Origin: Escherichia coli
Lineage (GTDB): Bacteria; Pseudomonadota; Gammaproteobacteria; Enterobacterales; Enterobacteriaceae
NCBI RefSeq assembly: GCF_009931435.1
Contig: NZ_CP043414.1
Direction: 5' to 3' (one strand)
DNA: 64,000 nt
How positions within the stretch are numbered: the first letter of the stretch is position 1; each line of letters begins with the position of its first letter. Made by a program: the position numbers. Shown here piece by piece: positions 21,001 to 27,000 of the stretch.

Positions 21001-24000
21001 TTTCCTGTATTTATTTTCAGGGTGATTGTTTTTGCCCATCAACGCATTTCCAGAATATTTAAAAATAACCTGTCACCGAAACAGAATAAAGGCGCAATAA
21101 CCATAGCGGGAAAATATGCGCCTCTGGTAATCGACAGTGTTACTTCAGACAGTGAGTTTCCCATTCCTTGACTGCAAATGTATCCATCATACCTGAAATA
21201 TAGTCAACCACTGCTCGTTTTTTGCTGATTTTAAATATATAGGAATCTGGTTGGGGTAAGGTGAATTTAAGTTCAGGAGGCAGAAATTTATAATTCTCTC
21301 CTTCATTGTAAAAGTCATATAAATCCCTGATTATTTTATTTCCCCTGAACTCATAGGTGAGGATATTACGTTTTCGCATGATGACTTTAAAGAGAAGTTT
21401 TTTGAGCCCTTCGGATAACGCATTCAGTTTCCCGAATCCCAGTTCCTGAAAACCATTCAGGTTCGTTACTACAGAAATATCTGCAACGAGGCGATTGACA
21501 ATATTTGAAGTTAACTCCTTGCGGAATATGATGGCAAATTCTTCTGAGGTTTTCAGTAAGTTAGCCTGAAAAGCGGTGTTTCTCGACTGAGTAACGATTT
21601 CCCTGAACTGTTCCCTCGCTCCCCGGAATTCGTCAGAAATCTGAAACTCATATTCAATATCTTCAATCGTGACCATGTTCCTGCTAAGGGCATCTTCCAG
21701 GTCATGCGCGGCATAGGCAATCTCATCCGCGAGATCCATTATCTGCGCATCAATCGTTTTCTCTCCGGGATTCAGATCGAGCTGATTTTCAGCAAGCAGG
21801 TTAATGTAAAAATAGTAATCATCATCATAAATGAACTTGCCGGCAGTAGCTGCAGCGCGGGGGATGGGATACTTAACAACCGAAAGTAAACTACGGTGAG
21901 TCAGATTTAATCCGTTGCAGTATGAAAATTTCTTCTCCAGTTTTCTCAGGATACGTAGCGCCTGTGCATTGCCTTCATAGCCGCCGATTTCTTCAGACAG
22001 TTCATTAAGTAGTTTTTCACCGGAATGACCGAAAGGAGGATTTCCGATGTCATGCGCCAGAGCTGCCAGTTCAACCACCACCGGGTTAACCAGTTTGAGG
22101 TCTGACGCGATACTTCGGGCGATCTGAGCAACCTCAAGACTGTGCGTTAATCTGTTTCTGTTGAATTTTTCAGGATCAATTTCAAAAAGTTGCATCTTTC
22201 CCTGCAGCCTGCGAAATGATGATGAATACAGAATACGCGCATAATCCCGTTGATAATTATCCCGGCTTCTTGTTTCACCATCGGGGGACGGGTGCTCTCT
22301 GGTATCAGCAAGCGCACTGATAAGTTTTTGTTCCTGCTCTTGCGCAAATTCTTTTAATTCATTGCAGTACATATTTCTTCCTTTCTGGAGCATGTTACCA
22401 AATCAGAATACCGGATGAACAAAACTGGTGGCTACATCCTGTAGGGATTATGTATTAGTAAGCTCTGGCCATTAGTGCCATTTCAGGTTATGTGATCCTA
22501 CTCACGTAATATGGACACAGGCCTAAGTGAGGTTCTGGTTTTCAAATTGTTCCGGACTGAGGCCGCCACACCAACTGTGCCGCCGCCACCGATTGTAATC
22601 ACATTCGATATAATTAAACACCGTTGCCCGCATTATTTCCCGGCTGATAAAGTGTTCTCCATGGATACATTCCACTTTCAGCGAATGAAAGAAGCTTTCC
22701 ACGCAGGCATTATCGTAGCAGCAACCTTTTGCGCTCATACTTCCACGCAGATTATGCCGCTTCAGTTGCGCCTGATAATCTGCTGAACAGTACTGGCCTC
22801 CACGGTCCGTGTGAACGATAACGTTCCGGGGCCTCTTACGCCGCCACAGCGCCATCTGCAGGGCATCGCAGGCCAGTTGCGCCGTCATGCGTGGCGACAT
22901 TGACCAGCCAATAACGGCACGTGACCACAGGTCAATGACCACTGCCAGATACAGCCAGCCTTCATCTGTACGTAAGTACGTGATGTCTCCTGCCCACTTC
23001 TGGTTCGGGCCACTGGCGTAAAAATCCTGCTCCAACAGATTTTCTGACACAGGCAGGCCGTGTGCGCGGTAGCTGACCGGGCTGAACTTCCGGGAGGCCT
23101 TTGCCCTCAGTCCCTGACGGAGCAGGCTTGCCGCCACGGTTTTTACGTTAAAGGGGTAACCCTGAGCACGCAGTTCATCCGTCAGGCGTGGGGCACCGTA
23201 ACGCTGTTTTGACCGGGTAAAAGCCGCGAGGACAACGCTGTCGCAGTGTTGGCGGAACTGCTGACGCGTGCTTATCCTTGTCCGCCGCTGACACCACGTA
23301 TACCAGCCGCTGCGGGCCACCCGGAGCACGCGGCACATTGCTTTGATGCTGAACTCAGCCTGATGTTTTTCAATAAAGACATACTTCATTTCAGACGATT
23401 CGCAAAGTATGTCGCGGCCTTTTGGAGGATAGCCAGTTCCTCTGCCTGCTCCGCCAGTTGCCGCTTCAGGCGGGCATTTTCAGCGGCCAGTTCACTTTCA
23501 CGATCTGACGAACTCATTTGTTGCTGCAGTTTGCTGCGCCACGCATAGAGCTGTGATTCATACAGGCTGAGTTCACGGGCTGCGGCAGCAACACCGATGC
23601 GTTCAGCAAGTTTCAGGGCTTCACTGAGAAATTCAGGCGAATGCTGTTTACGGGGTTTTTACTGGTTGATACTGTTTTTGTCATGTGAGTCACCTCTGAC
23701 TGAGAGTTTACTCACTTAGCCGCGTGTCCACTATTGCTGGGTAAGATCAAGTCTTACTTACCCTGTGAACCATGTTGATATTGATACTATATTGACTATA
23801 TGCCATACAGGTGGTAATGATTAGTTACTACCATACAGGAAAAGGTAGAAAATGACTCTTTTGGTAACGGCTGAGTGTGTTGACGATCTGATAAACGATG
23901 TTCATCAAGCTATCCTAGCGGATGGACTCAGTAACGATCCTACAAAAGGATCAACTCTAGAGATTCTTGGTGCCTATCTTGTCCTTACCGACCCCCGCCG

Positions 24001-27000
24001 AAGAATAAGTAGAACAGAATCCCGAGGAAAACTAATTAGTTGCTTAGGTGAATTTCTGTGGTATCTCTCAGCTCAGAACGATCTTGAGTTTATAAAACAC
24101 TTCATACCACGTTACGCTGAATCCGCTGAGTCAGATGGGAAAATACATGGTGGTTACGGGCCACGGTTGTTTAATATGCGTGGTTTATATAATCAGCTAA
24201 AAAATGTCATCAACCTTTTGCAGGAGAAAAAACCTACCAGACGTGCAGTAATACAGCTTTTCGATGCCTCAGACTTGGTGCCCTCAAAAACTGAACAGCG
24301 AGAATACGTAGATATTCCTTGTACAATATCTATGCAGTTTATTGTCAGATGTGAAGAGCTGCATCTATTTGTTTGTATGCGTTCTAACGATGCCTTTATG
24401 GGGCTGCCTCATGATGTATTTGCGTTCACGATGCTACAGGAATTAGTTGCCCGCTTGATAGGATGCGAATTGGGTCACTATCATCACTTTGTATCCAGCC
24501 TACATCTCTATAAAAATGATTTAGAAAAAGTGAAGGCTCTTCAGAAAGAGGGGTTCATGAGCACCCTACCAGTCATGGGATCGATGCCTGAAATGCATTC
24601 CTTAGATGATATCTTACCCCTGCTTGAGGCAGAAAAAGCTCTTCGAGAGAATAAGGAATTTGATATTGACACTACTTCCTTGAATGACTACTGGAAGGAT
24701 TTATTGCGTATATTAAAAATCCACTTTTTGTTACGTTCACATACACCCAACCACAAAGGACTAGCCTTCCAAGAGTTGGCTGCAATGAAAAATCAGGAAT
24801 ATCGGTTTATTTTTGAAGGAAGACTACAATGAAAAGACATAATCAAATCAGTCAGCTGGTTAGTAATTTGCAAAATTTTAGCCGCAATGAACACAACCTA
24901 AATGGTCTAAGTTCTCCTGCCTGCTTTGATGTTTTAGCCTGTCAGATTATCGACAGTATACGTCGTATACGCTATGTGGAAACTCTTGCATTACGGACCG
25001 ATTATATGACTCCGTTACGAAAAGAGCCGAATTCTGATGTTTTTGATCCTCTCCGCGCTGCCTGCCTTTATCTTCGTGACAACAATTACGATGAAGCCTG
25101 CTGGCTGGTTTTCCTTGCCACACATTTCGGCAAGAGTAACAAAACCGGCTGGATTTTGTGTCGAGATATATACAGTGGACTCGGTACACAAACGTGGACA
25201 TGGGATACGATAACTGATGACTTTGCTGCTTTTGAACAATGGTTCGCCAGCGTCTCTGATGAGTTGACAGCTAACAGTAGCCTAAGACAATATGGTAACC
25301 ATCGGAAATATGAAACGAAGAAATATCACTCTCGTCGTTCAATACCTGCGGTTTTTCGCTCTTACATCGGATTCATTGGTGCTACACACAGTCATGAGGC
25401 TAGGTTTGCAGAGGCCAAGAGCTTTTCATCTTCACCAGAATCTTTATTCGAACTATTGTATTCAGGGCTAAATGCCGTGATCTCATTTGGACGAACCGCA
25501 AAATTTGATTACCTAACTATGCTCAAGAAAACGGGACTTCTGGATGTAGAGCCGGGTCATGCTTTTCTGAATGGAGCAACCGGGCCCCTTCAAGGAAGCC
25601 GGCTACTTTTCAGCAATAGCCGGACTGCTGGTGACACAATAGACGTATTGAATGAAAAACTAGCTGACCTTGCGGCAATTATTCCTGCACCCTACTTGAG
25701 AATGCAGGTTATTGAAGATGCGTTGTGCAACTGGCAGAAATCACCTGACCGTTATGTCTATTTCGGCGGCTGATATCAGACGATATCTTCTTTACGGAAT
25801 CTCACTTTAAACCGATTAAGGTGAGAAAAAGGTATATTACCTTCATGCTGCAAATATCCCAGTACGATCCCTTTGGATACCCCCATTTTCCTAGCTAACC
25901 GGATGATCTCTTTCCAATGCCGGACACCATAGCGACTAAGTTGCTGCCGGTATTCTTCTGGGATAAGAACATCAACGGCAAATTTATCTGCTTCCTTTTC
26001 CTCTTCCGACGAAAGACTATCTTTACCTTCTACGCGAACTCGGACAGCTTCATGCAAGATGAGATGCCCAATCTCATGAAACAGCGTAAACCAAAAATGG
26101 TCATCGGTCAGATAACGGAAACTCATGACTAGGGTTGCGCGATCTGGTGTAAAAAAGCAGGTAGCACCACTTGCCCGACATCCCTTTGGCGTTGGCAACA
26201 CAACGAGAGAAACTCCAGCAGTGGCGAGAAGGTCGCGAATGTAAGGGATAAAAATCCTCATGTCGGGTTCATTTGTAGCTTTGCGCAGTTCTGGCAACAA
26301 TGCTATCAGCACCTCTTTATCCCATACAGCACAGTTTTGGTTTGAGGTAAGTTGTGCAGCCCTAGTCAGCCACACCAAATCGGCCATAGGCTCGGTTGCC
26401 AGATTAAGAGATTTACGAAAAGCGACCAAAGGAGCATCTGACTGAATTTTATAAAAAAAATCATTGACGGAATTTATTCCGAAAAACGATAGGCAGTGCT
26501 GGAATTTACTTTCCCGAGTTGTAGTTTTGGGGATCCAACCAAACTCCATCATATCACGTACAGGCAATGATTCGAGCCAATCATTATTCACTTTCTCGAG
26601 GTATCCAATTTGCTGGCGATAAGCGACTTCGCGCTTGATCCAGAAGTCTGTCGATACGTTGAATAACTCCTCAAGCTTACAAGCCAGAGACTCATTGAGT
26701 CGGATTTTTCCTTCAAGAAGTTGCTGACCCCGGATAAGAGACAATCCAATCCTCTTACTCAGTTCTTCACCAGAAAGCCCATGTTCATCCATTAGATCTA
26801 TAATTGTATCACCGGGTGGAGATACCCAGTCAGGCTGGAAGTCCTGCGTAACTATCATTTCACGTCACCTATGAACACTAACCGTATCCGGCTAACTCGG
26901 GACCAGTTAATTGTATTATCTTGATTTTTGGGCTGAACTGTATTCCCACAGACAAATCCCATTTTTACATCACCGAGAATGGTAATTGTAATACACTCTT

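Follow-up and report, generated by a model that had tools for sequence, protein, structure and literature searches.

A 64,000-nucleotide stretch of Escherichia coli contig NZ_CP043414.1 (assembly GCF_009931435.1; hereafter, the window) carries a cassette of two convergent operons, one encoding a thymidylate synthase (TS)-like protein and a member of aGPT-Pplase clade 3 (aGPT-Pplase3), the other a small RelE/HigB-fold protein and a fusion of an Xre-type helix-turn-helix (HTH) domain with an M78 metallopeptidase. The conserved unit has four genes at its core and four to six in all. We read the cassette, as an even call, as a horizontally mobile anti-phage or anti-mobile-element (conflict) system that would be built on 5-hydroxymethyl-cytosine (5hmC) chemistry. 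An anti-phage rather than a housekeeping role is argued from the fixed association, across phyla, of a DNA-base-modifying enzyme with a toxin–antitoxin-like pair. Its components are of known kinds, namely hypermodification enzymes of the phage type and a module resembling PD-lambda-2, and it has been flagged computationally before.

Conservation and distribution of the cassette

For the survey, one genome per GTDB species was scanned, and 219 loci were found (approximately 219 of roughly 100,000 species genomes carry aGPT-Pplase3 loci). Counts given out of 80 refer to the best 80 of these 219 loci, which come from Alpha-, Beta- and Gammaproteobacteria, Bacteroidota, Acidobacteriota, Chloroflexi, Planctomycetes, Actinobacteria, Verrucomicrobia and Myxococcota and span at least eight phyla; neighbouring genes were scored by tblastn with the window proteins. 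In the loci inspected first, those of Vibrio cholerae, Bradyrhizobium and Salmonella homologues (46–50% identity), the TS-like gene stands before the aGPT-Pplase3 gene and a convergent M78 gene encoding approximately 360 amino acids (aa) follows after a gap of 0–3 bp; all other flanking genes differ among the three. That the two enzyme genes belong together, as an initial annotation of the window had supposed, is borne out by the larger set: the TS-like gene lies upstream of aGPT-Pplase3 in 76 of 80 loci, the misses being three contig ends and one decayed copy in Chryseolinea serpens. The decayed copy (L037 7372–8906) has lost the TS-like gene and retains a uracil-DNA glycosylase (UDG)-like gene cut to 200 aa; its aGPT-Pplase3, M78 and small genes are kept. 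In 78 of the 80, a convergent M78 gene follows downstream, the other two loci being cut off by contig ends; a homologue of the ~108-aa small protein overlaps the M78 start in 84 of 85. The reverse search gave the same picture—each of four independently picked TS-like homologues (from Maribacter, Pseudomonas tohonis, Flavobacterium and Klebsiella variicola) has the same cassette neighbours, and the flanks of these loci differ wholly between taxa. The two-gene architecture first described thus falls short of the conserved unit. The HigB-like/ImmA pair had been rightly characterized (HigB fold, M78) and wrongly set apart as a separate neighbour, as it is part of that unit.

The convergent geometry is tight. 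Of 80 loci, 75 have the stop codons of the aGPT-Pplase3 and M78 genes at most 30 bp apart, and 41 show overlapping 3′ ends. In the window, 2 bp separate the stops at 25771–25773 (aGPT-Pplase3) and 25776–25778 (M78), and a terminator scan found no terminator-like site at this junction; as there is no room for one, the two operons must transcribe into each other. On the other side, the 102 bp or so upstream of the TS-like start codon (23750–23851, plus strand) are kept after an IS3 insertion and include a weak sigma-70-like site at 23792–23821 (TTGACT, 18 nt, AATGAT). Just upstream of the start codon, the block CAGGTGGTAATGATTnGTTAC (23810–23835), which includes an imperfect palindrome, is conserved in an Enterobacter locus (L010, ~6985–7010) and could be an operator; the word is not present upstream of the HigB-fold gene.

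Some cassettes carry further genes in the enzyme operon. In 28 of 80 loci (about 35%) the TS-like and aGPT-Pplase3 genes have a gene of ~265 aa between them, which the window lacks; examples are L027 7204–8004, L117 7010–7807 and L118 6978–7769, and it is also found in L015, L016, L025, L031, L035, L039, L040, L052, L065, L072, L080 and others. In some cassettes the enzyme operon comes with a DUF4031 gene of ~100 aa, its PF13223 match being confirmed in L117 (L048 6839–7144, L059 6773–7135, L065 2781–3092, L066 6850–7152 and L117 5647–5955).

Within E. coli, the cassette occurs in 229 of 5,426 complete genomes (4%). Among 72,556 plasmids, 10 carry it; five of these 10 are conjugative, and plasmids of Actinobacteria and Leptospira are among them. 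Searches by tblastn gave no match in 50,697 GenBank phage genomes, and 24 loci were found among 2.9 million IMG/VR contigs. Neighbours elsewhere include a Shedu SduA_C-domain protein, HipA, SMC/AAA_15 proteins, a NERD-UvrD helicase, AAA_15/21 ATPases with or without HNH, and integrases. The TS-like gene product (WP_000174035.1, the exact window protein) is listed as a 'predicted novel defense gene' with log-odds of 7.6 by DefensePredictor in a study of 3,000 E. coli genomes (Science 2026, PMC13092281), which flags aGPT-Pplase systems as interesting unvalidated predictions, one of them with a homologue of a known defence gene. The cassette is a plausible anti-phage candidate, as first proposed. 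The initial annotation knew of no described system of this architecture; the protein had, however, been flagged computationally, and the same study reports a related, validated TS-containing system, DS-4. Two 2026 papers, on defence discovery and on 5hmC-targeting defence, do not mention the cassette.

Predicted activities of the encoded proteins

The first gene (23852–24832, plus strand) encodes a 326-aa TS-fold enzyme that is best read, from its sequence, as a predicted deoxycytidine monophosphate (dCMP) 5-hydroxymethylase of the MilA/T4 gp42 type. Residues 58–232 match Pfam Thymidylat_synt (PF00303, E = 6e-25), PHROG 'thymidylate synthase' families match over the full length (E = 1.6e-43) and the RefSeq label is 'thymidylate synthase'. 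The protein falls below all eight NCBIfam TS equivalog cut-offs; its best score is 81.4 bits, where 327 would be needed. Among solved structures, the nearest relative is the cytidine monophosphate (CMP) 5-hydroxymethylase MilA (5b6d, 5jnh; E = 1.6e-41 over residues 26–304), and the best true TS in the Protein Data Bank (PDB) profile search reached E = 1.4e-18. The MilA match takes in the C-terminal extension of ~100 aa and, because it runs to residue 304, this extension is the counterpart of the five-helix C-terminal region of MilA.

The active site was compared across 72 full-length relatives from cassette loci, aligned with E. coli ThyA, T4 gp42 and the PaMx11 deoxyuridine monophosphate (dUMP) hydroxymethylase gp51. 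Cys157 (in DIPCTISMQF) aligns with the ThyA nucleophile Cys146, and C157, E67, Y102, R177, S178 and D180, corresponding to ThyA Cys146, Glu58, Tyr94, Arg166, Ser167 and Asp169, are invariant in the 72 relatives. At the position of ThyA Asn177 all 72 have Asp (Asp188), as do T4 gp42 and MilA, and PaMx11 gp51 retains Asn; at ThyA His147 all 72 have Thr (Thr158), as does gp42; and at ThyA Arg126 (Arg130) 65 have Arg and seven have Lys. According to the structural study of MilA, enzymes with Asp at the base-specifying position use cytosine substrates and those with Asn use uracil; Ser and Arg go with deoxyribonucleotides and Ala and Lys with ribonucleotides, and the double mutation A176S/K133R inverts the sugar preference of MilA (PMC5175136). 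Under these rules, Asp188, Ser178 and Arg130 lead to dCMP as the predicted substrate, rather than to the uracil/thymine chemistry implied at the outset. A 5-hydroxymethyl rather than a 5-methyl product is suggested by the relationship to MilA and gp42 and by a MilA-like C terminus in place of the closing tail of TS enzymes.

An identity as housekeeping ThyA was considered and rejected on the equivalog score (81 bits against 327) and on the changes Asn177→Asp and His147→Thr in 72 of 72 relatives. In this respect the initial annotation is supported. It had given two open reading frames of 326 and 314 aa that overlap and are probably made together, a TS fold with an intact nucleophilic Cys, a C-terminal extension and a gene distinct from thyA; the reading frames and their coupling through the overlapping stop and start are confirmed in the sequence, the fold and the Cys by the PF00303 match and the alignment with ThyA Cys146, the extension by its homology to the MilA helical region, and the distinction from thyA by equivalog scores far under the cut-offs.

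The second gene (24829–25773, plus strand) starts within the stop of the first, at ATGA 24829–24832, and encodes a 314-aa aGPT-Pplase clade 3/amino-acid:DNA-transferase (AADT) family protein. It had been assigned to no recognizable family, a statement that does not survive matches to aGPT-Pplase3 (PF18746, E = 5.5e-90) and ADDT (PF18724, E = 1.1e-58); the accompanying suggestion of an aGPT-pyrophosphorylase-like partner was correct, and a newer RefSeq annotation already names the protein aGPT-Pplase3. The PADLOC, NCBIfam and PHROGs collections gave no match for it, nor did a PDB profile search with the family alignment. The family comprises 3,903 clusters at E ≤ 0.001 and is uniform in length (~311–316 aa). 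Among 32 relatives, E89, H158-R159-x-Y161, G221-R222 and T251-G252-P253 are invariant, among others, as is a C-terminal block Q293..E296-D297-x-x-C300-N-W-Q-K.

This block is where the family meets its characterized relatives. The clade 2 enzymes M6 gp51, ViI gp247 and PaMx11 gp46 transfer glycine or serine to 5-phosphomethyl-deoxyuridine in DNA by means of an essential Cys that attacks C6, with a Glu nearby (PMC8989533), and the crystal structure of gp46 identifies Cys247 as the catalytic residue and shows the target base turned out of double-stranded DNA (PMC11472151). By hhalign, the aGPT-Pplase3 segment MQVLEDALCNWQKSP falls on IQEVETILCKWKSHQ of gp46, placing C300 on C247 and E296 on E243 in a match that is weak overall (E = 0.032). 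From this alignment the catalytic apparatus is judged to be retained, and C300 and E296 are the predicted catalytic Cys and Glu. Comparisons of aGPT-Pplase3 with PaMx11 gp46 and gp50 (E = 0.03–0.05) are informative only at the C-terminal E-x-x-L-C motif, and hhalign of aGPT-Pplase3 against DS-4C (HMUDK_hel, WP_087900470.1) gave no significant match. PaMx11 gp50 (L091 14787–15674) and DS-4C, a Pfam-confirmed HMUDK_hel protein, bear a C-terminal E-x-x-(L)-C-E-(F/I)-D-K; gp50 is tentatively placed in the HMUDK_hel type, and its motif resembles the E-D-A-L-C-N-W-Q-K of aGPT-Pplase3 in the alignment (E = 0.05). The HMUDK_hel-type and aGPT-Pplase3 families may be homologous and have a common Cys chemistry.

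The optional 265-aa protein has no Pfam, NCBIfam, PADLOC or PHROGs match, and a PDB sequence-profile search returned nothing meaningful. Its predicted structure is confident (predicted local distance difference test (pLDDT), 94.4), and Foldseek placed human TDG at the top (E = 3e-5, probability 1.0), together with family 4 UDG, UdgX and SMUG1. A G44-L-N46-P-S motif is invariant in the family and resembles the G-I-N-P-G motif that bears the catalytic Asn in TDG/MUG enzymes. The modelled fold points to a TDG/MUG-like glycosylase of the UDG superfamily. As this would be a second base-flipping DNA enzyme in the operon, the chemistry of the cassette is argued to end on DNA.

In the opposing operon, the 360-aa protein (25776–26858, minus strand) combines an Xre-type HTH at its N terminus with an M78 (ImmA/IrrE) metallopeptidase domain at its C terminus (Pfam Peptidase_M78, E = 2.4e-10; HTH_3, E = 0.0015). 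The PADLOC model PD-Lambda-2_B matches residues 14–340 (E = 3.3e-30), and the CapP, RmrA and Lit models match more weakly. The HExxH motif (H261-E262-x-x-H265), H269 and E287 are kept in at least 95% of 79 M78 sequences, and the HTH matches HigA TIGR02607 (E = 7.5e-5) below the model cut-off. The small gene (26855–27181, minus strand; 108 aa) shares 4 bp with the beginning of the M78 gene and occupies the position of PD-lambda-2 protein A. Pfam, NCBIfam, PADLOC and PHROGs gave no match for its product; its AlphaFold2 model (pLDDT, 94.6) is closest by Foldseek to Proteus vulgaris HigB, YoeB and RelE (template-modelling scores of 0.63–0.76, probability 1.0), and D38 and W93 are the sole invariant residues in 36 relatives. 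On the strength of this model, the pair appears to be arranged as HigBA, with the RelE/HigB-fold gene upstream of the HTH gene. PD-lambda-2 is a validated abortive-infection system of a HigB-like protein A, an Xre-peptidase B and a protein C related to a P4 antitoxin, in which B is toxic alone and is rescued by A, and C is required for defence (Vassallo et al. 2022, PMC9519451). PADLOC found no C among the cassette proteins, and there is no third gene on that strand.

Proposed mechanism and competing explanations

Given the active-site residues and the closest solved relatives, the TS-fold enzyme would convert dCMP to 5-hydroxymethyl-dCMP using methylene-tetrahydrofolate. The modified nucleotide would then have to enter DNA, the weak link of the scheme as no kinase is encoded; host or phage deoxynucleoside monophosphate (dNMP) kinases may serve. 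Judging from family membership and the conserved catalytic motif, aGPT-Pplase3 could flip the 5-hydroxymethyl-pyrimidine, with Cys300 attacking C6 and Glu296 acting as an acid to give an exocyclic methylene, and could next add a nucleophile or trap the base. In about one-third of cassettes the TDG/MUG-like glycosylase would act on like bases, and the outcome would be damaged or unusable replicating DNA. The HigB-fold and Xre-HTH/M78 operon, being related to PD-lambda-2, may provide control or a trigger; as the operons meet without a terminator, antisense transcription or transcriptional interference is likely.

Several points weigh against a conflict system of this kind. All characterized aGPT-Pplase relatives need a 5-hydroxymethyl-deoxyuridine (5-hmdU) DNA kinase to make the leaving group (PMC8989533), and neither a nucleotide kinase nor a 5-hmdU DNA kinase homologue is encoded in the window cassette or in any inspected locus, so the route of 5-hydroxymethyl-dCMP into DNA and a chemistry on the unphosphorylated hydroxymethyl group are conjecture. 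All characterized aGPT-Pplases moreover use uracil-derived bases, not cytosine, and for the TS-like protein the sequence does not by itself separate a hydroxymethylase from a methylase. PADLOC has no model for the TS-like protein, aGPT-Pplase3 or the small HigB-fold protein. The association with defence islands beyond the window comes from a handful of loci and is anecdotal. The cassette is outside the 94 transcription units that DefensePredictor tested, only 45% of which were validated (PMC13092281). With regard to regulation, promoter-like sites in the promoter and terminator scan do not exceed the shuffled expectation, and the idea of an operator shared by the two convergent operons was dropped, given that the longest common words are no longer than in shuffled sequence (7.6 against 7.3 nt; 72 loci).

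The best-placed alternative, which we nevertheless consider unlikely, is that the cassette puts a hypermodified cytosine, at a low or a high level, into host or mobile-element DNA for anti-restriction or epigenetic purposes, much as its phage relatives modify phage DNA, with the HigB-fold/Xre-M78 pair as a regulator or addiction module. All aGPT-Pplase/AADT members characterized so far help to build a DNA hypermodification that protects, and the pairing of a TS-like hydroxymethylase with an AADT is also seen in phage clusters (for example, PaMx11 gp46–gp51). The carriers of the cassette are islands, integrase-flanked regions and plasmids, of which five plasmids are conjugative. Such a mark would, however, be left without the kinases that raise a monophosphate to a triphosphate or act on DNA, and without a cognate nuclease to make it useful. 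Marking the whole genome would also be hazardous in E. coli, which commonly restricts hydroxymethyl-cytosine DNA through McrBC-type enzymes. The optional TDG-like glycosylase suits removal or damage better than a stable mark, and no member of the family turned up in the phage genomes searched, although it is in phages that protective marking is known.

Rather more doubtful is a role at the nucleotide level only, in which the enzymes act on free nucleotides as MilA/MilB and BcmA/BcmB do, draining or poisoning the dCMP, dCTP or folate pool during infection or making a modified nucleotide or base that serves as an inhibitor or signal. The lack of an encoded kinase would fit, as would the gene overlap, which suggests coupled enzymes, and the order of the MilA pathway, in which a hydroxymethylase is followed by an enzyme on the free nucleotide; nucleotide-pool enzymes such as dGTPase are known defence effectors, and a MazG-like gene adjoins the cassette in E. 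coli and Enterobacter. The solved member of the partner family, by contrast, binds double-stranded DNA and flips its target base (PMC11472151), and the optional extra enzyme has, in its model, a DNA-glycosylase fold. The Ser/Arg signature indicates deoxyribonucleotides rather than the ribonucleotides of the antibiotic pathways, and no further tailoring or export genes are conserved in the inspected loci.

A host-made 'prodrug' defence is a long shot. Here 5-hydroxymethyl-dCMP would fill the cell, and only a phage with a broad-specificity dNMP kinase would make hm-dCTP for its own DNA, after which aGPT-Pplase3, with the TDG-like glycosylase in some cassettes, could turn bases of the phage DNA into adducts, crosslinks or abasic sites. 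Classical work is reported to have found no hm-dCMP kinase in uninfected E. coli, so the host would not raise 5-hydroxymethyl-dCMP to the triphosphate. Discrimination between self and non-self would then come from phage nucleotide metabolism, and the PD-lambda-2-like pair would be a switch working through convergent transcription.

Ordinary metabolism, meaning a spare thymidylate synthase or pyrimidine salvage enzyme that hitch-hikes beside an ordinary toxin–antitoxin pair, has the RefSeq name and the PF00303 match in its favour and is very improbable given a score of 81 bits against equivalog cut-offs of at least 327, the two active-site replacements in 72 of 72 relatives, a sporadic distribution (4% of E. 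coli genomes, ~219 species genomes) and, against hitch-hiking, a four-gene geometry that is fixed across at least eight phyla while the flanks are unrelated.

Should the cassette defend against phages, hosts would be turning base-modification chemistry on viruses. Until now, enzymes of DNA hypermodification have been known as a means by which phages counter the nucleases of bacteria. In the cassette, a clade confined to bacteria stands with a predicted cytosine-type hydroxymethylase and a module from a validated abortive-infection system, in an arrangement fixed from Proteobacteria to Chloroflexi and Actinobacteria. If true, the conflict reading would give a function to aGPT-Pplase clade 3, to which none is assigned in the literature covered, and could yield enzymes that recognize or derivatize 5hmC in DNA without prior phosphorylation, of use in epigenetic mapping. 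The assignment of the TS-like protein also corrects annotation, as at least several thousand database proteins of the TS-like clade are labelled 'thymidylate synthase'.

Genomic setting and relation to known systems

The window cassette is cargo of a CP4-like integrative island that also carries a dGTPase gene, a type I restriction–modification (R–M) system and a PDC-M55A/NsnB/AriA-like ATPase. The initial annotation had described a horizontally acquired island, which is supported and is a defence island, and its listed neighbours—dGTPase, IS3, the HigB-like/ImmA pair, a MazG-like gene and type I R–M—are all present; the link that it drew to the dGTPase fails. The dGTPase gene (21140–22393, minus strand; PADLOC dGTPase model, E = 1.4e-109) was rejected as a member of the system: a dGTPase was sought within 8 kb and found in none of the 80 loci of other species, which makes the adjacency in the window incidental. 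The IS3 copy that separates it from the cassette (~22493–23749) ends ~100 bp upstream of the TS-like start codon and is flanked by ATG and AGT, that is, without a 3-bp target-site duplication, so the adjacency may stem from rearrangement through recombination between IS3 copies.

Divergent from the HigB-fold gene lies a MazG-like gene (27283–27588, plus strand; 101 aa), which elsewhere adjoins the cassette in 1 of 80 loci, that of Enterobacter. A MazG-like nucleotide pyrophosphohydrolase could supply dCMP from dCTP, as T4 gp56 does for gp42. The type I R–M system begins at 29010 (REase_I, E = 1e-273), and directly after its S subunit lies a gene for a 540-aa ABC/AAA ATPase (35296–36918, plus strand) that matches the PADLOC models PDC-M55A (E = 1.4e-40), NsnB (E = 3e-37) and AriA. 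With the 298-aa protein that follows (36873–37814, plus strand; no PADLOC match), this ATPase is possibly another defence pair, judging from sequence matches and gene order. Between the island backbone and the dGTPase gene stand an H-NS-family gene (19619–20053, plus strand; RefSeq name in an identical region) and a gene for a predicted 190-aa membrane protein without a PADLOC match (20470–21042, minus strand). Farther along, positions ~41650–58900 are 100% identical to a Tn21/Tn3-type resistance region of E. coli chromosomes and plasmids that contains, in related records, merA, a Tn3 transposase, IS1326 and TEM-1.

Single components of the cassette have well-studied counterparts. T4 gp42 and MilA/BcmA have the fold and the Cys/Glu/Tyr catalytic set of the TS-like protein; gp42 also has the Asp for cytosine and the Thr after the catalytic Cys, and the helical C-terminal extension of MilA resembles that of the window protein. 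The contexts differ, as gp42 acts in a phage pathway with a dCTPase, a dNMP kinase and glucosyltransferases, and MilA and BcmA, which favour ribonucleotides (Ala/Lys), supply antibiotic pathways, whereas the TS-like protein is of the deoxy type (Ser/Arg). For the convergent operon the counterpart is PD-lambda-2: the homologue of B is nearly full length and is overlapped by an upstream HigB/RelE-fold gene, and the 108-aa protein has the position and, in its model, the fold of A; the PADLOC model of A gives no match. PD-lambda-2 has its C protein, and the window pair is instead always attached to a convergent enzyme operon of two to four genes.

Among whole systems, DS-4 ('NTTI'), which consists of a TS homologue, a dNMP kinase, HMUDK_hel, TIR and Nmad2 proteins, was validated against phages in E. 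coli (PMC13092281). Like the window cassette it is a bacterial, non-phage operon of the E. coli accessory genome predicted to be defensive by the same model; BLASTP aligns its TS with the window protein at 29% identity (E = 1e-28), and it too has a protein of the phage thymidine-hypermodification toolkit. The DS-4 TS has Asn (uracil type) at the base-specifying position, where the window protein has Asp (cytosine type). DS-4 carries HMUDK_hel where the window cassette carries aGPT-Pplase3, lacks the HigB-fold/Xre-M78 pair and encodes a dNMP kinase, TIR and Nmad2, none of which is in the window cassette. The thymidine-hypermodification clusters of phages M6, ViI, PaMx11 and PhiW-14 pair a TS-like pyrimidine hydroxymethylase with an aGPT-Pplase/AADT, as here (Lee et al. 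2021, PMC8989533; gp46 structure, PMC11472151), and their catalytic logic (a C6-attacking Cys and a nearby Glu) and E-x-x-L-C motif are common to the window partner. Those clusters are carried by phages, and their enzymes, of clades 1 and 2, work on uracil-derived 5-hmdU and require the 5-hmdU DNA kinase; the clusters often add pyridoxal phosphate, radical S-adenosylmethionine or flavin adenine dinucleotide tailoring enzymes. The cassette described here, in contrast, has no tailoring enzymes or kinase and is bacterial only, combining a clade 3 enzyme with a predicted cytosine-type hydroxymethylase and an attached toxin–antitoxin-like pair.

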